From Planctomycetota bacterium (GTDB lineage: Bacteria; Planctomycetota; UBA8108; SXIK01), in NCBI GenBank assembly GCA_965223265.1, contig OZ244999.1, positions 5,856,001-5,920,000 of the forward strand: a DNA stretch of 64,000 bases, written 5' to 3'. How positions within the stretch are numbered: position 1 is the stretch's first letter; each line of letters starts with the position of its first letter. Of this stretch, positions 10,716-21,313 are shown in pieces. Position numbers and translations under genes: made by a program. The notes under the pieces were generated by a model, which was given only the letters and a program-made list of their open reading frames with translations, was not told the origin of the DNA and did no database searches.

Positions 10716-11984
10716 GGGTATGTTAGCGATCCACGACTTCGACACGATCGAAGGTTCCGCGCCCGAAGACCTCCGGTTCGTACATCGCCTCAACTCTCGC
10801 TGCCGGCGTCAAGAAGAGACCTGGGGTCGTCGCGCGGACGAGGTATTCATGCACGTAGAATCCTTGCGGTAGCGACGTAACAAAAACCTCGGCCCGATCG
10901 TCGTGATGCTTTGACGCGGAGAAACGGAGACGCGTCAGCTCACCAGGTCCCCCCTTCAAGCGGCGAGACCACCGGGGCAAATCGCGACCCGCCTCGAATC
11001 CGGCAGGATAGGGATCGACGAGCGCGACATGACGTCGGCTCCGCGGCGTCATGAGGAATAGTCGCACGCGCACGAGCGCACCAGCCTTGACGCTTGCTCT
11101 GCCATCCGCGAGAAACTCGACATCCGACGGGTCATGGGCACCTTCGTAGCGGCGCGACACTTCGAAGCCGGCTGCAACTGCCGGGACGTCGACGTGTCCG
11201 AGCGCGTACTCGAGACGCAACCAGTAGAAAAGACGCCCCATTCCCTCTTGGGCGATCGTCAGCGACGCGACGTTGCCAGCCCCGGTTGTCAGATAGGAGC
11301 CGGGGACGTTCAACATCTGCGCGGGCGCCTGTCGCCCCTCGAAGACTCGCTCACCGAGAAACTTCTCGCCCAGCCAAGTACGCGCAACAAAACGCGGTGA
11401 CTCACGCTCAACCGCCGCGAAGTACCGACCAAGGGCCACGAGAGCGAACGCGTTCTCTTCGGTTGTACGCCACCGGCCCTGCTGCTGTCGACGAACGAGA
11501 CCGTCGGCGAGCTTGCCGACCAGTTCGTCTTCAGGATCACCGCCAGCAAGAACCTCAAGAAAAACCGCATGCGCCCGCAGTGGCGACGGGAGCACGCTTT
11601 CCCACGATGCATCCATCGCAGTCTCGATCTGGGCGCCCCGTGCCGTCTCGTACACTTGATTCTCCAGGTAGCGACGGATCTCAGCAGCCACGTCGCGTGC
11701 GTGTTCGTCGCACTGAAAAACCTCCAGAAGCCAGGCAAGCGCCTCTGCAGGATACCGATCCATCGGCGTCCTCAAAAACCACGTTCGAGCACCGCGACGC
11801 AGTGGAGTAGCCGCCGCAGAAGTAACGCCCCGACGAAGATGCTGGACATAGAAAGCGTACGATCGGATCAGCAACACTTCGGCCGAAAGGGACGATACGT
11901 CGTCAGTAGGCCGAAGGGTTGTGGGCGCGACGGTGTGTGTGTCCGACGGTGTTTGTGAGGCTGGGGTCGGTTGCGCTCCCGCCT

Positions 11985-12150
11985 CGGTTTGCGTGGGCGT
12001 TTGCGTGGGCGTTTGCGTGGGCGTTTGCGTGGGCGTGGGCGTGGGCGTGGGCGCGTGCGTGGGCGCGTGCGTGGGCACGTGCGACTGCGATTGCGTGGGC
12101 GATTGCGTGGGCGATTGCGTGGGCGATTGCGATTGCGTGGGCGTGGGCGT
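11985..12150. repeat. 6/12-bp tandem repeats encoding a Pro-Thr/Gln-rich linker in the A2M frame
   Basis: (GCGTGGGCGTTT)n, (GCGTGG)n and (GCGTGGGCGATT)n translate as TPTPTQSQSPTQ... on the minus strand. Confidence 0.9.
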
Positions 12151-12171
12151 ATTCGTAACGCTATCCGCGTG

Positions 12172-12345
12172 CGCCTCTGCCTCTGTCTCTGTCTCTGCCT
12201 CTGTCTCTGCCTCTGTCTCTGTCTCTGTCTCTGTCTCTGTCTCTGTCTCTGTCTCTGTCTCTGTCTCCGTCTCTGTCTCTGTCTCTGTCTCCGTCTCTGT
12301 CTCTGTCTCTGCCTCTGTCTCTGTCTCTGTCTCTGTCTCTGCCTC
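12172..12345. repeat. Hexanucleotide microsatellite (GTCTCT/GCCTCT)n, ~29 units, encoding (Glu-Thr/Ala)n; segment 1
   Basis: Read directly; the same repeat resumes at 14000-14052 and 15722-15806. Confidence 0.95.
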
Positions 12346-12396
12346 AGAAACTATGGGCCGTCCTCGTGTACCATAGTCTTTTTTAGGAGTGAAGAG

Positions 12397-13524
12397 ATGG
12401 CAACAAGAACGACCCAGGGACAGCTTACCGACATGAGCGAAGTTCTTCACGTGGCAATTGACGTTGGCAACACAACGTGGAAGCTCGTCAGCGGTGTTGC
12501 GGGGAGCCGGCCGCGCTGCAGGACGGTCGAGGCGGGAAACCTTGCGGAGTTTCAGGAAGAGCTCTCGAAAGCCAAGGCGCGCTTGCGCCTTTCGCCGCAA
12601 GCTGAGGTGGTGAGCTGCTACGAAGCTGGCCGCGATGGATTCTGGCTGCACCGTTGGCTCGTAGACAGTGGGATCCACAACGCCGTCATTGACCCGGCTA
12701 GCTGCGAGGTCGATCAGCGCGCCAAGCGTCAAAAGACCGATCGCCTCGACGGAGAGAAGATGCTCGATCTTTTGATCCGTCACCACGGCTCGTCGCGCAG
12801 CCCACTGCGCGTTGTCAACGTGCCGAGCGTGCAGATCGAGGACGAGCGCCGCCTGCCAAGAGAGCGTCAGCGCCTTGTCAAGGATCGCACTCGGCACATC
12901 AATCGCCTCAAGGACATGTTGATCAAGTTCGGCATCCGCGCCCGCCTCAAGAAGCTGCCTGAAATCATCGACACGTTACGCGGCCCCGATGGATCTGCGA
13001 TCCCCCCGCATGCCAAGGCAGGCATGCTACGCGAGCACGCTCGGCTGCAGCTTGTCGAAGAGCAAATCGCTGAGATTGAGGCCGAGACTCTCGAAACGCT
13101 CACCAACTCGCCGGAGGCCTGCAAGAAAGTCGGCAAGCTCAACAGCCTGCGCGGCATCGGCATGTACACTGCCGCAACGCTCTACTACGAGTTCTTCTGG
13201 CGTAAGTTCAACAATCGCCGTGAAATCGGAGCCCTGGCAGGAATGGTGAGCGTTCCCTGGCGCAGTGACAACATCAAACGCGAGCAAGGAATCAGCAAGG
13301 CTGGCAACGGGCGTGTACGCACACTCATGGTTCAGGCTGCCTGGAACTGGCTGCGCTTTCAGCCACAGAGCCAGCTATCTCAATGGTTCTGCCAGCGCTA
13401 TGGGCCAGGCACCAAGCGCTCGCGCAAGGCGGGAATCGTCGCCTTAGCCAGAAAGCTGCTCATTTCGCTCTGGCGATTCCTCAGCACTGACGTACCACCT
13501 CCGTTGGCACGGCTCAGTTCCTAA
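12397..13524 (+). CDS. IS110-family DEDD transposase/recombinase
   Basis: AIDVG, YEAG, KTDRLD (DEDD); LRGIG, WRSD, ISKAGNGRVR, ALARKL; AGGAG RBS before ATG 12397. Confidence 0.95.
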   Translation: MATRTTQGQLTDMSEVLHVAIDVGNTTWKLVSGVAGSRPRCRTVEAGNLAEFQEELSKAKARLRLSPQAEVVSCYEAGRDGFWLHRWLVDSGIHNAVIDPASCEVDQRAKRQKTDRLDGEKMLDLLIRHHGSSRSPLRVVNVPSVQIEDERRLPRERQRLVKDRTRHINRLKDMLIKFGIRARLKKLPEIIDTLRGPDGSAIPPHAKAGMLREHARLQLVEEQIAEIEAETLETLTNSPEACKKVGKLNSLRGIGMYTAATLYYEFFWRKFNNRREIGALAGMVSVPWRSDNIKREQGISKAGNGRVRTLMVQAAWNWLRFQPQSQLSQWFCQRYGPGTKRSRKAGIVALARKLLISLWRFLSTDVPPPLARLSS

Positions 13525-13977
13525 TTCGATGACCAGCAACAGGCTCAACACACCAACCCAACTCAAACGGAGGGACCTGCAGGGCTGACTCGGATTCTTG
13601 GCCGACTGTAGGACGCGTTCGAGCAGAGGCTGGGCTGGCTTTCCAAGCCGCCGTGCTTCTCAGAAGGAACCGTCCTTGTCGGTTCGCCTGCCGCGATGCG
13701 AACGCAGTATCAGGTGATCCGCCAGAGAGCGGACACGCATAGGAGTTGGCCGCGAGGCGCTTTGCCGCCCCGGCGCTCAGAGCGAACCGAACACTTGGCT
13801 TCTTTACCGCCAGCCCAAAGACAACACAGCACTACTACGAAAATGATCTCTCCCGCGTGCGGTACCTTCCGGGCTGCACAGAGCCCGGGGGCGCTCTACC
13901 CGCCGCCCCCCGGACCCCCAGGCAACCCAACTGCCCCACGTCGGATTGAAGACAATCAAGAAAAGAAAGCTCCCCCG
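13525..13977 (+). ncRNA. Putative bridge/seek RNA region of element A
   Basis: Downstream non-coding position typical of the IS1111 group; GCAGAGGC (13623-13630) is the reverse complement of the right target flank 14001-14008; structure not verified. Confidence 0.55.
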
Positions 13978-13999
13978 TTGACAACAGTCGGACCATAGG

Positions 14000-14052
14000 T
14001 GCCTCTGCCTCTGTCTCTGCCTCTGCCTCTGTCTCTGCCTCTGTCTCTGCCT
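14000..14052. repeat. Microsatellite segment 2 trapped between the two IS elements
   Basis: tgcctctgcctctgtctctgcctc..., reading AETEAETEAEAETEAEA on the minus strand. Confidence 0.95.
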
Positions 14053-14076
14053 TCCATGAGAAGGCCAAAAAGTCAA

Positions 14077-14554
14077 GAGAGGCGAACGTGGTCGCCGCCC
14101 GAGCGCAGCGAGGTCAATCGTTCTCTGCGCCGAGCGTAGCGAAGGTCAGTTGTAGGGTGGGCGGTCTACGCGGCAGGGAGGGGCCCGCGAGCGGCAATGA
14201 GTCCGCACGCGAAGCGTCTCGTTTGGCGGCCAGGCAGCAAATGCCCTTGCTGCCTGGCCAAGACCGTTTTGGTGCGCTGAGGTTTCCTGAGATTCTCGAA
14301 AGAGTCTATCGCGCGGTTGAAGCCAGCCTTCCATACGCACTTTGGGTGAGGAGTCTGTCCTGGAGTCCTCTGTGCAAGTTGGGGTCCGAACCGTCGTGGT
14401 GCTGCACACTCTGTCGCGAACTCCTGGTATGATCGAAGGAAATTTGGACGCCCTCGATCGGTTCAGTGCAGAGGTCGCAGTCACCAAGACGAGACTTTTC
14501 ACGCGGGTAGATCCTTCAGAGGCTTTTCAGTCGCCTCGTAATGACACAGGCGGC
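14077..14554 (-). ncRNA. Putative bridge RNA region of element B
   Basis: Guide-like GCGACAGAG (14409-14417) matches the target flank 8/9 and lies between two stems; ATGGAAG (14328-14334) is identical to the element end plus core. Confidence 0.7.
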
Positions 14555-15631
14555 TCAGGCCGAGCGACGCGTCGAGCGCGAGGCGTTGTAGAGTGGATCG
14601 TAGCGCTCGCCGCTGGCCCAGAGGTGATGCATCAGCACGGCGAGCTTTCGTGCCACGGCGACCGTGGCTTGCTTTTTGCCCCTGGCAGCGCCGCGCTGTC
14701 CCAGCCGCTCACCGAAGCGCCTTAGATCGCAGTCCTCCCCGAACGGCCCCAAGATATAATGCGCGCTGCCGACAAGCAGTCGGCGTAGGTAGCCGTTGCC
14801 ATACTTCGAAATACGAAGCTGTGGAGTCCTCGACGAAGAGTCGTGCTGCTTCGGGACGAGTCCGAGATAGGCCCCGACCTTGCGGCTCTTGGAGAAACGC
14901 TCCGGGCTCTCCAGGCTCAAGACAAACGCCAGTGCCGTCAGTGGCCCTACGCCGTTGATCTCTTGAAGGCGCTTGGTCTCTGGGTACTTCTCTGAGAGCG
15001 CCTTGATCTCTCTGTCGTAGCTGCGCACCGTGGCGCTAAGCTGTCCGATCTGCTCGAGCATCGGTAGCACCGCCGCCTCGAGCTCCTCGGGAATATCCTC
15101 CCTGACTTTGTAGTGGAAGGCGGCGCTTGAGCAGCTCTTGAGGCGATACCCGCTCGACTTGACGAGACCTCGCACGCTGTTGATCAGTGTCGTGCGAGTG
15201 CGCACTACTGCGTCACGGGCACGGATGACTGCCAGGTCGTTTTGGGCTGAGAGCTGGCGGTGACGAACCGGTCGCAACAGGCGCGGGCTGCCCCAGCCCA
15301 GCGTCGCCAGGGTGACGGCGTCGAGCTCGTCGTTCTTGCGACCGTTGGCGGCAAGAGCACGCCCTGCGCAGACAGGATTGGCAACGATCACCTCGAAGCC
15401 GAGCTCTTCGAGCACCGCACTGACCCACGGCGAGTGCGTGCCCGCCTCGCAGACCACGCGCGAGCCTCGCGGGAACTCATCAAAGCGCCTAGCGAGCGCC
15501 GAGCGTGTCGTCGCCACGCGCTCGTTGGCGAGGATCTCTCCATCGAGCGTTATCGCCACCAAGTGGCTAAGGCGGTCGCCGAGATCAAGGCCGATAGACA
15601 ACATACGCTGTGTTTGATTACTTTGGGACAT
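14555..15631 (-). CDS. IS110-family DEDD transposase/recombinase
   Basis: GLDLG, CEAG, KNDELD (DEDD); INGVG, YLGLVP..HDSS, ISKYGNGYLR, AVARKLA. Confidence 0.96.
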   Translation of the reverse strand: MSQSNQTQRMLSIGLDLGDRLSHLVAITLDGEILANERVATTRSALARRFDEFPRGSRVVCEAGTHSPWVSAVLEELGFEVIVANPVCAGRALAANGRKNDELDAVTLATLGWGSPRLLRPVRHRQLSAQNDLAVIRARDAVVRTRTTLINSVRGLVKSSGYRLKSCSSAAFHYKVREDIPEELEAAVLPMLEQIGQLSATVRSYDREIKALSEKYPETKRLQEINGVGPLTALAFVLSLESPERFSKSRKVGAYLGLVPKQHDSSSRTPQLRISKYGNGYLRRLLVGSAHYILGPFGEDCDLRRFGERLGQRGAARGKKQATVAVARKLAVLMHHLWASGERYDPLYNASRSTRRSA

Positions 15632-15721
15632 GGTCAGTCTCTCCTTCTGGGTTCAAAGCCCGGTTAATGTTGCAGATCCTTCTTCGGATACTGCGTGGAG
15701 GGACTGGCCTTCTCATCCCAT

Positions 15722-15806
15722 CTCTGTCTCCGTCTCTGTCTCCGTCTCTGTCTCCGTCTCTGTCTCTGTCTCTGCCTCTGTCTCTGTCTTCGTCTCCGTC
15801 TCCGTC
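15722..15806. repeat. Microsatellite segment 3 (GTCTCY)n
   Basis: Encodes TETETKTETEAETETETE at the end of the A2M N-terminal ORF. Confidence 0.95.
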
Positions 15807-18800
15807 CCCTCCAACTCAAAACCCCGCTCCGCGAACTCCTCCCATCGATCGAGGACACCGGCATTCACGGACAAGCCGGCACGTTCGGCGCGCACGAGAG
15901 CGTGGGCGACGTGACAACTGAGATACGGATCCACCTCGCCGCCTTGCCAGTACGGCCAGCCTCCGCCGCGCTGCAATCTTTCGAGTCGAAGGATATCGTC
16001 TTCGATGCGACTGCGAAGATGCTCCGCGCTCGGGAGTCCCATGAGCTCGAACGCCGCAGGAAACTCCAAAAACGCGGTCATGCCGAGCAGTCGCGATGCG
16101 ATCTGTTCGCCACAGTCATATGGATACTCGCCGAGGTAGCGCAGCGACTCAGCCAGTGTCTCTAGTCGCGTCGCCGTCAAGCGCACACTAAGGCCGCCGC
16201 GGTTCGCAAGCGCTGCGTTTGGTCGTGCGAGCGCCTCGCGCACCACGGCTGCTTGATCACCCATCGCCTCCAACTCTCCAGTGGCGACGACGGTCTCGAC
16301 GGGCGTGGGTTCGTGCACGGGGAACGACAATTCCGCTGCGTCCGAGAACTCTGCTGCAGTCGCCGCAGCTTGGACGATCGCCCTGCCGCCCTCCATGGCA
16401 AGCGCCGGAAACCGCACCTCGCGGCGGTCACGTGCGGCAACAGCGACTCGACTGCCGATCAAGTCTGGCAGGCTTTCGCCGTCGTCAGGCTTGGCGCGCC
16501 ATGAAATGCCGCGTGCCCGCATTGCCAAGTCGACGTTCAGTGTTTCGTCGGTGGCGTTCTGCAGGACGACGGTCATGTCGAACCGATCGCCGCGCCGCAC
16601 GAATCGCGGTGGCGATGGCCGCACAGCCAGCGGCAAGGTCGCTGTGACAACGGCAGAACCACTGCCGAATCGCTTCGTCGTGGCAGCGACCGCAGTGATT
16701 CGATAGCGGGTCAGAGTCCCTGGCAACGTCAAGGTCACGACAGCCTTGCCGTTTGCATCCGTCTGCACTGCAGGTGCGAAGAGTGCTGTCGCACGAAAGT
16801 CGCGCCGCAGTGCGATCGGCACGTCGCCCCCACTGGAGAGCGACGTCAAGACGGCACGCGCACCGGGAACGGCGTTAGGGTCTTCGGAGTCGAGCGCCAA
16901 GTTCGGAGGGCGGAAAATTCGTGATTCGCGGACGAGCTCGGACGCTTCTTTTGATGACGGCTCGAGGAACGACGCCATGCTCCAATGGCCGCGCACTTTC
17001 GTGTACGGGTAAGGATGGAACGTATCCACGAGGTCCGGTGCCTCGTAGTGTGCCAAGGCATGTATGGAATCATCGACGACGAGCACGCACACCTCCGCGT
17101 CGGAGACAGGACGCTCTCGGTGGTCTCGGACGGTGACATCGATCGTGGTCGATGCACCGGGAGCGAGCGCAGGATCATGCGGTGCGACATCGACGTGTAG
17201 ACGTCGCGATGCAAGCGAAACGTTCAGCGTCACAGTCGCGACGAGTGATGTCGGCCTGGTGGGTGCGGTCGCATCTTGAAGCTGCCTCGCATCGCGCGGC
17301 AGTGTCGCCAGTACGTCAACGTGCAGAAAAAGTTGAGGCAAGTGCTCTTCGCCGATCAAAAACTCGAGCGTGTGATTCGCGCCGTCCATGTCGAAACGCT
17401 GTGTCGACAGAAGGCCACTTCGGATCAAGGTCGCGACGCCCGACGCTGGAGAATAGGGCGACTTCACCAGCACACGCGCGATGTCACCTGGCTCATAGAC
17501 CTGTCGGTCAGGGACGAGCTCGAGTCGTTCAAGACGTGGCGTGCGCGGAGCATGGCGCTCGATTCCAGAGACCCAGAGAGTGCGCTCGGCAACAGCCCTG
17601 CGGCCGTCCGGATCGACGGTCTCGGCGCGGACGACGTGGGTTCCGGCGCGCTGAGGAATGAAATCGACGCTGACCGGTTGGTCGGCGGAGATGACCCGTG
17701 TTGCTTGCTGGTCCGACTCCACCCGTAGGCGGCCATTCGGCCCATCAACCCATTCGGTCCGCACCATCTCGAACGCGATCGGCACACCGGACTTCGTCTT
17801 CCCCGCCGGATCGACAACGACGGCCTCGAGCGGCACCGACGCGCCGGCGGCGACAAACGATTCACTGGTGCGCAGTCCAACCAGCCTAGAGGACGGAAGG
17901 ACGACGAGCTCAGACCAGGTGCGCCTCTCGAATCGGGTCACATCCAAAACTCTTGCCGTCAGGTAGACCGACATAGGCTCCGATGAACGTACGTGCGCAA
18001 AGTCGACGCGCAGTCGATGGATGCCGGTCGCGTCCGTTCGCCCGCTGAGCTCGACCTCATGAACAGTCCCCTCCGAGTGGAACTCCTCATCGAAATCCCC
18101 CCACCAGGGCGACCAGCGGCCAAAGGTGAACGAATCCCATCCTGGGATAGAAACCTGCGCCGGGGACGAGCTCGCCTGCCAGCGGACGAACGCGTTCGCG
18201 AGCGGCCCGGACGACAGATAGTGCGCGGCCAGCGTCACCTCGGCGGACCCGCCGCTAAAATGTGGCCCGGGGTCAGGAATGCAGGATATCTCGAATTCAG
18301 GACGGCGGTACTCTCGCACGATCACGTTTCGCGACGCAACCTCCTCGCCGCGAGCGAACACCTTGACCTTGGGCCATTCGTTACCCGTTGGTAACCGAAA
18401 GGAAAAATCGAAACCACCGAGCGGCGTGAGGGCCGCCGCTCCTTCGCGCGTATGGCTCTCGCCGGCGATCACGTAGCGCACCTCGTGGATGTCTGTCGGA
18501 AGCCCGACGTCACCGCCGCGCCGGTGGTCTACGCGCCGTAGCCATCCCTTGACGTGGACCTCGTCTCCGGGGCGATAGACTCCGCGATCGAGGAGAAGCT
18601 CGCAGCGGTCAGATCGATGCGGCACCTCGTCGAAGCGCCAGGCGGAACGGCCGCCGTAGTCGTAGGGATCCAAGAACGCCGAGTCGTCTCGCAAGCGTGC
18701 GACCAGAAGAGGCGGTTCGCCGATCATGCCAGCGAGGTCGAGCGTCGCGAAGTCGCCGTCGGTCACACCAGCTGCCGACGTCGGCGGGTAGAAGGAAACC

Positions 18801-21313
18801 GCTGCGCCATCGACGTTCGTCCGATCGCTTAGTCGCGTCACCCATGCAGTCAACTTCGATGGATCCCAAAGCGCTAGCAGTTGTAGCTGGGTGCGTTCGA
18901 GCCAAATGGCCCGAGGCCGAGTGTCGTAAGCTCGCTCAAACTGCGGGGCGTTGACACGAACAACCGCGACTGCATGGCCAACCCCGCCCGGAAATGCACG
19001 CGTCAAGTTCAGCCGCGTCTCAACGAGCTCATTGACATGCCCGCGCACTGAGATGCGCTCACTGAAGAGGTGAACACCGGGAACCTGTAGTGCGCGATCA
19101 CGCTGCAATTCCTCGTCGCGATCGACTTCCTCGAGCCACTCACGGTAGCGAAGAAATCGCCCCCAATCCGCAACTTCCACGCGGTACACGGAGAGGTCGA
19201 TCGATTCGAGGTTGATCGCATAGCAAGAGAGCCCCGGCGGCCTGTCGGGGTCGAGGACGACTTTCTTTTCCGAACCCACGAAGTGGAGCCCTGGTCGCTC
19301 GCGCGTTTCGTCGAAGTGCAGTGTCACGTCGCCGCCGAGGGTCCGCCCCTGATGGTCACGGAGGCTGCTGGGAAGGGTCACTTGAAACGCTGTGGCGTCG
19401 GTGTCGTCGATGACGATCGTGAGGCTCTGACGTTCTACCTCGATGCGACTCGAGGTCACAGCCGGGCAGATTCCAATCCTTGAATGATCGCCAAGGGATG
19501 ATGGATCGAGCGGTGCTGTGAACGAGATTCCAAGCTCGACTCGATCGAAGCCGTCGGCGCCGTGGTACTCGACCGCGAAATCGTCACGTTTCTTCTCGCG
19601 GTACACCTCGAAGCGAAGACGCTCAACGCGATCGCTGACCTGCTCGCCGACGAGGGAACGAACTCCAGGTTTGAGCTCGACGTCGACGTGATCCGAAAGC
19701 AACTCGGGGACTCGGTAAGCAACCCAGTTCCCAGGCCGCACAGCCCTCCGAACCGACCCCCTTTGGGGATTCAACGGTTGCTCCCAGTCGTTGCTGTCCG
19801 ACTGAAGCTCTCGCTGCTTCAAAGAGTAGTGTTCCTCGACGTCTTCCCACGTCAAACGCTCTACTGCGACCCGCTTCCCCTCGCAGCTCACAACCAGTCG
19901 CTCCTGCACCGAAGCTACATCGATCGGCTGGTTGAAGACGAGAACGATGGGTGCATTGCTGTCGACGCGCCAGTCGGATGGATGAAAACGTACGAGCCGG
20001 GGCGGGGCTGTTGAAAACTCGAAGACTGCCGTCTCTTCGAGCAGGGCTCCCGAAAGTGACGTGAGGGAGCGAGGCACTTCGACGCGATAGCGCGTCGCCA
20101 TCGGAAAAAACCGTTCCTGCGGTGTAGTGCCAGGGACGAAAAGAAGTGTCCGTGTGTCCAACCACCTCCAGTTTCCTACCGCATGCGGCTTCAGCTGCAG
20201 CGACGGCGCGGAAGAAGGAACGAGCTGCATTCCAAGCGGCACCATCGGCTGCGAGAAGGTGACCCGGATATGATCCGCGCGTTCGACACCCCCCTGCGGG
20301 GAGAAACGTACGATGCGAAGAGGCTCGCGTGCGTCTGCGTTTCCAGACACGTCCTCGGCGCCGCGGCGAGTCGTGTTCGACGCCAGACCGACGCGGCGAG
20401 ACGGCGGCGTTGTCGAAGGTGAGGCGGGAAGAGGTCGCTGCTCGGTCGGTAGCTGCAGCAGCGCGTCCTGCTTCTTCTCTGGAGCCTTCAGATGCGGCAG
20501 GCGGTAGAAGATGCTCGCAGCCTTGGAAGAGGCGAGCGGTTCGGGAGTGCATGGCGCGGCGCGGTCTCGATGCAACGAGCCGACAGTGGGAGGCCTCGCA
20601 GGCGCCGACGCCGACTCGGAGAGTCGAAACGGCGGTTCATCCGCATCGCTCTCAATGGGCCAACCGAACGCCGCTTCGAACGTCGCTCCGAGCGTCACCG
20701 CCACCAGAGAGGAGAGAAACCAGGGAAAGGATGCGCGTCGGCTGCAGTCTGGCCGGAGCCCCCGTCGAAGTCGCCGTCGAGGTCGCCGAGATCGCCGTCG
20801 CATCGCGCCCTCCTGGAACTTCTCCATCCCTGAAGCTTTCGACTCAATGCTTCAGTGTAACTGCGCACGGTCACGGAACTGTCATGAAAAGAAAAACGCT
20901 GCCTCTTGGCTTCTTGAGCGGGGAGAGAAGTCGAGCACTGCGCGAGGACGACGCAAATTCGGACGGCACTCACGGCGAGCTTTCGAGAGCCAAAGGCCGA
21001 CACCATCTCCGGTTCCGCTTCGGTCTCTTTCTCGAACTCCGAGTTCGTGTCGGTTCTATGTCCGTAATCCGACTCCGTCCCCCGATACCTACCCCAGAAT
21101 GGCAAGTAAGAACGCCGAAGAGCGCACTACGGAGACCCAAAACTGCTGGTGCCCCCGTTCGAAGAGTGAAAACGACTGATGTCTACTCTACATTTCGCAG
21201 GCTGGGAGTTTATCTCGCAGTCGCGCAGGTCGTTCTGCCGTTCCGCGAGTGCCACACAACTCTTTATATGTCGCCTTCTGTCACAGGCCGGCATCGGAAG
21301 CTCAAAAGCGATA

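Follow-up and report, generated by a model that had tools for sequence, protein, structure and literature searches.

RNA-guided recombinases of the IS110 family of insertion sequences (IS) are in development as programmable DNA insertion tools. The described systems closest to the locus reported here are the seekRNAs of IS1111 elements (ISEc11, ISPa11, ISKpn4, and ISPst6; PMC11187229) and the bridge RNA of IS621 (PMC11208160, PMC11208158). The locus is IS element B, which lies on the minus strand of a 64,000-nucleotide (nt) stretch of a Planctomycetota genome (contig OZ244999.1, positions 5,856,001 to 5,920,000; hereafter the window). The 3′ non-coding tail of element B very probably encodes a guide RNA of the IS1111 seekRNA or bridge RNA type. 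This type of RNA is already known, and no new mechanism is revealed by the element B RNA. What is new, if modest, is a large clade of environmental elements whose guide code can be read and from which 82 RNAs were aligned, an apparent one-letter natural retargeting within a single genome, and a coding microsatellite as an IS landing pad, which bears on the disruption of repeat-rich linkers in large bacterial proteins.

With the IS1111 seekRNA systems, as described in PMC11187229, element B shares a DEDD transposase, subterminal inverted repeats, a long 3′ non-coding region, and a −35 box near the right end that could form a promoter on circle formation. In ISEc11, ISPa11, and ISKpn4, the guide with complementarity to the top strand precedes, in 5′ to 3′ direction, the one with complementarity to the bottom strand (PMC11187229). 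The same order, with guides overlapping at the insertion point, was found in element B and its relatives, in which the right target guide (14473-14465) precedes the left one (14415-14409). Close relatives are also naturally redirected by guide changes in both groups. On the other hand, element B differs from these systems in its subterminal repeat (ATGAG[A/T]AGG, nearly invariant across the family), in an AG core that is kept across the clade, and in its transposase, which is at most ~34% identical to plasmid-borne IS110-family genes. Its target is a coding microsatellite rather than the repetitive extragenic palindromic (REP) sequence, attC site, or transposon end reported in PMC11187229. Furthermore, stretches that match the donor can be assigned in the clade of element B, whereas none are assigned in the Results of that paper. 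A literature search recovered no paper that, judged by its title, deals with microsatellite targets for IS110/IS1111 elements; the supplements of PMC11187229 and PMC11208160 may already list the clade.

Element B is an intact IS1111-type insertion sequence of the IS110 family. Its coordinates are given in window positions and were taken from a minus-strand reading of 15900-13900. The flanks of four genomic copies fix the ends, and the element therefore extends from 15723 to 14051, with the AG core counted at each end. The left end (15721-15705), delimited by an inverted-repeat search and by the family ends, consists of the extension ATGGG (15721-15717, the right donor or RD positions) and the left subterminal inverted repeat ATGAGAAGGCCA (15716-15705). 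The right end (14076-14051) contains TTGACT (14076-14071), the right subterminal repeat TGGCCTTCTCAT (14067-14056), and the extension GGA with the core AG (14055-14051). The left target flank (LT) is GACAG (15728-15724), next to the core AG at 15723-15722, and the right target flank (RT) is GCAGAG (14050-14045). The two subterminal repeats are 12 bp long and are inset by 5 and 3 nt plus the core; their length falls within the 7-17 bp given for the IS1111 group in PMC11208160. The transposase gene (14555-15631) encodes 358 amino acids with matches to PF01548 (E 7e-18) and PF02371 (E 8e-18), that is, a RuvC-like DEDD transposase with the C-terminal PF02371 domain that characterizes IS1111/IS110 elements. 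Residues D16, E62, D101, D104, and S265 occupy columns that are at least 95% conserved among 99 family proteins. Only ~90 nt separate the left end from the ATG, compared with 503 nt after the stop codon, and a longer non-coding region downstream of the transposase gene is a trait of the IS1111 group. Element B thus shows the sequence-level features of the IS1111 group and of a seekRNA element.

The genome contains four near-full copies of element B that are 97-100% identical. All four are located in (GAGNCN)n tracts and have the same ends, in agreement with the initial annotation of this DNA, a model's reading of the bare sequence, which had proposed a microsatellite as the target. Their left ends read G[A/T]C[A/G]G-AG followed by ATGGG-ATGAGAAGGCC, and their right ends GGCCTTCTCAT-GGA-AG followed by GCAGAG. 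Insertion was site- and orientation-specific, with G[A/T]C[A/G]G-AG on the left in 4/4 copies and GCAG on the right wherever the right end is kept. The transposase reading frame is open in every copy, and the high identity among the four may be counted as a sign of recent activity.

The best relatives of the transposase are ~50-55% identical; genome contigs contributed 32 loci and metagenome contigs 124, and 80 of the latter were retained. No relative above 55% protein identity, as needed for a finer-grained test, was detected in genome contigs, metagenome contigs, or 21 genomes of the same order, and 20 other genomes of that order yielded no relative except one partial match. The clade is known here only from environmental genomes and metagenomes. 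Both ends and flanks were definable in 79 elements (78 relatives and element B), all of which have the architecture LT-AG, ATGGG-ATGAGAAGG ... CCTTCTCAT-GGA-AG, RT; TTGAC occurs near the right end in 74 of them. The 3′ non-coding region of the 79 elements contains three stretches in a fixed order. The complement of the core and right flank comes first; the left flank with AG recurs 25-50 nt further on, and the right end with AG another ~75 nt later. GACAGAG and ATGGAAG of the window are the second and third stretches of this series.

The link between these stretches and the flanking DNA was examined on a MAFFT alignment of 65 distinct non-coding regions (alignment A1), which was not fitted to any structure; identical regions had been collapsed, and one element without the anchor motif (L022) and four that lack an exact right-end copy in the non-coding region (L034, L091, L095, and L097) were left out. 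Five of the 65 (L016, L024, L063, L077, and L082) were omitted from the permutation tests because their offsets lack AG/AG or their flank is too short. The remaining 60 gave 54 elements with distinct guide strings and 34 representatives with less than 80% RNA identity. Guide columns were compared with the flanks and ends of the same element and with 5000 random re-dealings, and the permutation results below refer to the 34 representatives.

The left target guide of element B is GACAG (14415-14411) with the core AG (14410-14409), and it is identical to the left flank at 5/5 positions. The initial annotation had proposed a longer guide, GCGACAGAG at 14417-14409, that matches the flank GAGACAGAG at 15730-15722 in 8/9 letters; these letters are present as described, but the leading GC is the end of a conserved stem and lies outside the guide. 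Across the family, the left target guide matched its own flank at 154/170 positions, compared with 65.2 ± 7.4 after permutation (0/5000 as good). Its length is 5 nt plus AG, with AG invariant in 54/54 elements, and matches at flank positions −6 to −8 fall to chance level (14, 11, and 11 of 54). The three letters that follow were compared with the first letters of the left end and also matched more often than expected (86/102 vs. 75.8 ± 2.3; 0/5000 as good).

The right target guide, for which the initial annotation gave no position, was found in the column directly 3′ of the invariant GACTGCG. The window reads GACTGCG-A and then CCTCTGC-A-CT, in which CTCTGC (14473-14468) and the flank GCAGAG (14050-14045) show complementarity at 6/6 positions and, after the bulged A14467, CT (14466-14465) faces the AG core. 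This guide lies upstream of the interval 14270-14430 to which the guides had originally been assigned; both left guides fall inside that interval. In the family, the right target guide was complementary to RT+1..+7 at 155/238 positions, compared with 75.4 ± 7.3 after permutation (0/5000 as good). The register was set by CT at 7, 8, or 9 nt after GACTGCG, a choice that is blind to the flank but presumes the core complement; CT is present in one of the three permitted registers in 29/34 representatives. Taken over the 54 elements, the core dinucleotide appears as AG in both left guides in all 54 and as CT in the right target guide in 48.

The permutation leaves relatedness in, and disjoint pairs of close relatives with differing guides were therefore also tested. 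The left target guide fitted its own flank better than that of its sister in 6/7 pairs and worse in one, and the right target guide did so in 9/12 pairs, with three ties and none worse. A similar agreement was observed within the genome. In each of the four copies, guide position 14412 and flank position −2 (15725 in the window) carry the same letter, which is A in the window copy and G in the other three; the left flank matches the guide allele of its own copy at 5/5, 4/5, 5/5, and 5/5 positions. The A allele is private to the window copy, most other differences of which are common to copy c4. This agreement is expected if the RNA of a copy, or of its circle, guides the insertion of that copy, and because it concerns a single site it is supporting evidence rather than proof. 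The covariation of guides and flanks over homologous non-coding regions is thus clear, and the guide letters change with the target among relatives, a pattern that reads as natural retargeting. From this covariation we infer that the RNA would be reprogrammable, as the initial annotation had it.

The left donor guide is ATGGA with the core AG (14334-14328), and it is identical to the right end of the element (14057-14051) at 5/5 positions; ATGGAAG had already been recognized at both places. An exact copy of the element's own right end plus AG occurs in the non-coding region of 75/79 elements, the other four being L034, L091 (a 4/5 match), L095, and L097. In 54/54 scored elements the left donor guide begins immediately 3′ of GTGCG-N, at one and the same alignment position. 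Of the four guides, the right donor guide is the weakest. The candidate in the window is CCCA-A-CT (14383-14377), 5′ of hairpin P3 and complementary to AG-ATGGG at 6/7 positions. The corresponding columns of the family match the complement of the left end at 128/170 positions, compared with 113.1 ± 2.7 after permutation (0/5000 as good), and match RD positions 2-5 in 25, 28, 33, and 30 of the 34 representatives. Furthermore, the right donor guide of L091 (TCCATCT) fits the end ATGGA of that element perfectly over 7 nt. The guide code of the clade can be summarized as 5 nt plus AG for the left side of the target, ~5-7 nt plus CT for the right side, and a left donor guide identical to the right end. 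A possible handshake after the left donor guide was considered and rejected: the GC after ATGGAAG equals the right flank in the window, but across the family the match is 27/102 vs. 23.7 ± 3.4 after permutation (1005/5000 as good), and the identity appears to be a coincidence.

A covariance model built from 64 relatives, with the window excluded (R1), matched the window RNA over its full length at 14496-14319 (67.5 bits, E 1.6e-18), which defines the core of the seekRNA or bridge RNA; all 13 model pairs are standard in the window match. The model also matched all four genomic copies and one further RNA, at 2.06 Mb, which follows a transposase with 44% identity. The blocks GACTGCG, GCAGC, GGACCCC, TGCAC, and GAGTGCG, which are invariant in A1, are present in the window RNA. 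These matches, together with the covariation of guides and flanks, bear out the proposal that the 3′ non-coding region of element B carries a guide RNA.

Two helices were predicted by RNAalifold on A1. The first forms the base of the target arm (basal helix), where TGGTG-A-CTGC (14486-14477) pairs with GCAG-CACCA (14405-14397); 99% of its cells are paired, and 6/9 pairs show compensatory changes. The second is hairpin P3 (14376-14336), in which TGCAC (14376-14372) pairs with GTGCG (14340-14336). Every cell of P3 is paired, in the set of 65 as well as in a set of 78 distinct sequences, and L082 shows one compensatory pair. A fold of the window RNA added the upper hairpin of the target arm (14464-14418), formed by GAAC (14464-14461) and GTTC (14421-14418), which corresponds to family helix 2; it is 73% paired in A1, with compensatory changes in 3/4 pairs, and MAFFT shifts one subfamily out of register by 1 nt at this hairpin. 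With the upper hairpin included, 93.7% of cells pair in A1 (n = 65) and 10/17 pairs are compensatory, a level reached by 0/500 shuffles, whereas slid controls gave 22-59%. In the R1-fitted alignment of 82 RNAs, 99.1% of cells are paired and 8/13 pairs are compensatory; this alignment is fitted to R1 and consequently leans towards the model. Guide columns are unpaired in the family consensus. A GC-rich 12-bp hairpin without a U run (14259-14228), seen in a single-sequence fold, may mark the 3′ boundary of the RNA. A basal helix P1 enclosing the whole RNA is visible by eye in several relatives, but it was left out because its columns are inconsistent in the alignment and it is weak in the window. 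The single-sequence fold of 14470-14230 is ambiguous (z −2.1) and was for that reason not used as evidence.

Transcription of the element B RNA, its binding by protein, its pairing with DNA, and the chemistry of insertion we infer by analogy with ISEc11 (PMC11187229) and IS621 (PMC11208160, PMC11208158, PMC13626964); a transposase-RNA complex would pair the guides with both DNAs. The internal loop of the target arm holds both target guides, the right one on its 5′ side and the left one on its 3′ side. The right target guide would pair with the top strand to the right of the insertion point, and the left target guide with the bottom strand to the left of it. The second hairpin (14376-14336) is flanked by the donor guides, with the right guide 5′ and the left guide 3′. 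The target held in this way would be GACAG-AG-GCAGAG, and the donor would be the circle junction ..CATGGA-AG-ATGGG.., with a predicted joint of ..CTCATGGA-AG-ATGGGATGAG... Strand exchange at the AG core would then insert the element into (GAGNCN)n microsatellites, always in a single orientation. The joined ends would also bring together TTGACT-16 nt-GAAGAT across the junction, a putative junction promoter with a weak −10 box, comparable to those described for the IS family. A scan of the minus strand for promoters and terminators found no promoter-like site within the element and no terminator-like site.

Several observations weigh against this interpretation. The window RNA ranks only 80th of 82 by R1 score and is among the most divergent, and the non-coding region of element B is ~200 nt longer than in most relatives. 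Its right target guide contains a bulged A, so that CT is reached only after a 1-nt bulge that is mostly absent from relatives, and the TGT after its left target guide matches at 0/3 positions, whereas relatives carry their own left-end letters (ATG, ATA, or TTA). The repetitive target also makes the right and left target guides mutually complementary (CUCUG with CAGAG), and in an unconstrained minimum-energy fold they pair (14474-14468 with 14413-14406 in the window) and close the target loop. As for the donor side, the exact left donor match was also used to choose the aligned regions, so only its fixed position counts as evidence. Donor guides have only four or five sequence states, each common to one subfamily, and the CT core complement is present in the right donor guide in only 3/54 elements (the window among them), with CA in 38/54. 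Finally, many of the relatives are short metagenome contigs, and their flanks may therefore be chimeric.

The initial annotation had described an IS621-like bridge RNA in which the stems GGAGTTC/GGACTCC (14424-14418 with 14368-14362) and TGTGCA/TGCACA (14408-14403 with 14376-14371) enclose a target loop, the donor loop lies inside a GTGCG/CGCAC stem, and ATCT (14293-14290) serves as the right donor guide. Element B does resemble IS621, as described in PMC11208160 and PMC11208158, in having four guides (left and right, for target and donor) that follow the same strand rules, in the inclusion of the core dinucleotide within the left guides, and in target guides that come ahead of donor guides. 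In addition, relatives have three letters behind their left target guide that agree with the other DNA partner and so resemble the handshake guides of IS621; however, they follow the left (bottom-strand) guide in the clade and are part of the right guides in IS621. Other features differ. The RNA of element B is encoded in the right end, 3′ of the transposase gene, and not in the left end, and the right guide precedes the left in each pair; element B therefore lacks two defining features of an IS621-type bridge RNA, namely RNA location and guide order. Its donor guides flank a hairpin in the junction beside the target arm instead of occupying a separate internal loop, its core is AG and that of IS621 is CT, and the right donor guide of the clade mostly lacks the core complement. 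The three stems are indeed complementary in the window sequence, but over the 65 relatives only 44.2% of their cells are paired, and 499/500 shuffles reach at least that value. Their arms already belong to covarying helices, and the earlier fold is consequently not supported: the GCAG-CACCA strand (14405-14397) overlaps the TGTGCA arm, and both arms of P3 are paired elsewhere in that fold. ATCT is replaced by ACTT in the three other copies despite an identical left end and is not a guide. An IS621-like arrangement of this RNA is thus very unlikely. Of the guide calls made earlier, the left target and left donor guides were recovered at the family guide columns, and ATCT was not.

Another alternative is that the RNA guides the choice of target only, as a short seekRNA that consists of the target arm (14486-14397), and that the protein recognizes the ends through the subterminal repeats. 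In that case, ATGGAAG and CCCAACT would belong to a conserved scaffold of common origin with the ends and would not be pairing partners. The near-invariant ATGAG[A/T]AGG would be expected of a protein-binding site, and a short seekRNA of 82 nt is reported in PMC11187229 to be enough for ISEc11 transposition. The few states of the donor guides, the small absolute excess at the right donor guide (128 vs. 113 of 170), and the missing link between the right flank and the letters after the left donor guide point in the same direction. In contrast, the variable letters of the left donor guide (GGA, AGA, AAG, GAA, and AGGGA in L020) equal the right-end extension in 54/54 elements at one fixed column, L091 has a perfect right donor guide, and donor loops have been predicted in IS1111 members (Durrant et al., PMC11208160). 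These results make target-only guidance unlikely, though it is the strongest of the competing explanations. It is more doubtful still that the RNA of the window lineage is decaying, with the bulge, the mismatched TGT, and the self-complementary guides making the element poorly mobile or immobile. The guide deviations and the low R1 score of the window RNA would fit such decay, as would a 3′ truncation in one copy and a tandem triplication of the 3′ end in another, but the four copies are nearly identical with open transposase frames, and the private allele at 14412 fits its own flank, a fit for which insertion under the guidance of this allele is the best explanation. The possibility that the matches arose by chance in low-complexity sequence, and that the region is merely a 3′ untranslated tail, is negligible. 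When the 487-nt non-coding region was dinucleotide-shuffled 2000 times, the flank 9-mer was recovered with no more than one mismatch in 159 shuffles and the exact end 7-mer in 23, and no Rfam match was obtained for 11500-16500 at E up to 1. Both matches occurred together in only 1/2000 shuffles, so that jointly they exceed chance while the 9-mer alone does so weakly, and the R1 match and the covariation likewise speak against chance. A guide RNA of the IS1111 type, with guides for both target and donor, is the preferred reading.

A (GAGNCN)n microsatellite flanks element B on either side and encodes a linker in an alpha-2-macroglobulin gene. From base composition, 0.39 occurrences of the 13-nt target GACAGAGGCAGAG would be expected in the whole genome; 28 were counted, spread over 13 loci. 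Tracts of five or more GAGNCN units number 59 in the genome, and many extend over 100-276 bp. Such a load of one hexanucleotide repeat class is unusual, and the repeats presumably code for Glu-Thr, Glu-Ala, or Glu-Ser linkers. The host gene (10723-12897 and 15713-20827, minus strand) encodes a bacterial alpha-2-macroglobulin and is split in its (Thr-Glu)n-coding repeat by two IS elements; the upstream part contains A2M, bait-region, and MG domains, and the downstream part contains bMG10. The second of these elements, element A (~12346-13999, plus strand), is an unrelated IS110-family element that is inserted in the same microsatellite and oriented the other way. The transposases of elements A and B share only 27% identity. 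Downstream of its gene, element A also has ~470 nt of non-coding sequence, and TTGACA is present close to the right end.

Precise excision is known for the IS family to which element B belongs. It is conceivable, albeit improbable, that the RNA inhibits itself until protein or DNA opens it and that, with such excision, insertion of the element acts as a reversible on/off switch of genes with linker repeats. The target guides would then zip up the target loop, and the microsatellite would offer many adjacent landing registers. On the same speculative view, the switched genes would be those of large secreted proteins, here an alpha-2-macroglobulin with two different IS elements in one repeat.

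A third family member was identified in the genome at G000:C1:2060044-2061518 (L050, L131). Its transposase is 44% identical to that of element B, and its own RNA scored 72.6 bits. The left target guide reads CACGA+AG+AAT, and the flank AACGA-AG-AATGGG lies in a 9-bp tandem repeat (GCAAACGAA); the right subterminal repeat was not found in the 2.1 kb searched. Many of the other relatives (L027, L030, L109, L118, and L125, among others) are inserted in palindromic or tandem short repeats, such as GGTGCC-AG-GCACC and taaccg/taatcg, and L091 is located in a GCAGAGAC-type repeat.

The copies of element B differ in the state of their right ends. In copy c3 (G000:C1:402091-404178; L003, L005, L006), the last ~203 bases are present three times in tandem. 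The joints each read ..CATGGAAG and then GCAGCAAGG, that is, the right end is joined to an internal site CCAG/GCAGCA (14257-14248 in the window) that is similar to the core followed by the first letters of the right flank. The triplication looks like the outcome of recombination between the right end and this pseudo-target within the element. Copies c2 and c4 (G000:C1:5604924-5608201; L002, L004) share one microsatellite in the same orientation, with ~62 bp between them, and c4 lacks the last ~135 bases and runs directly into the repeat. Solo fragments of 30-87 bp that derive from the last ~180 bases of the element, with 91-98% identity, were also detected at G000:C1:9028002-9028085, 1447514-1447629, and 5652428-5652504 (L007-L009, L012).

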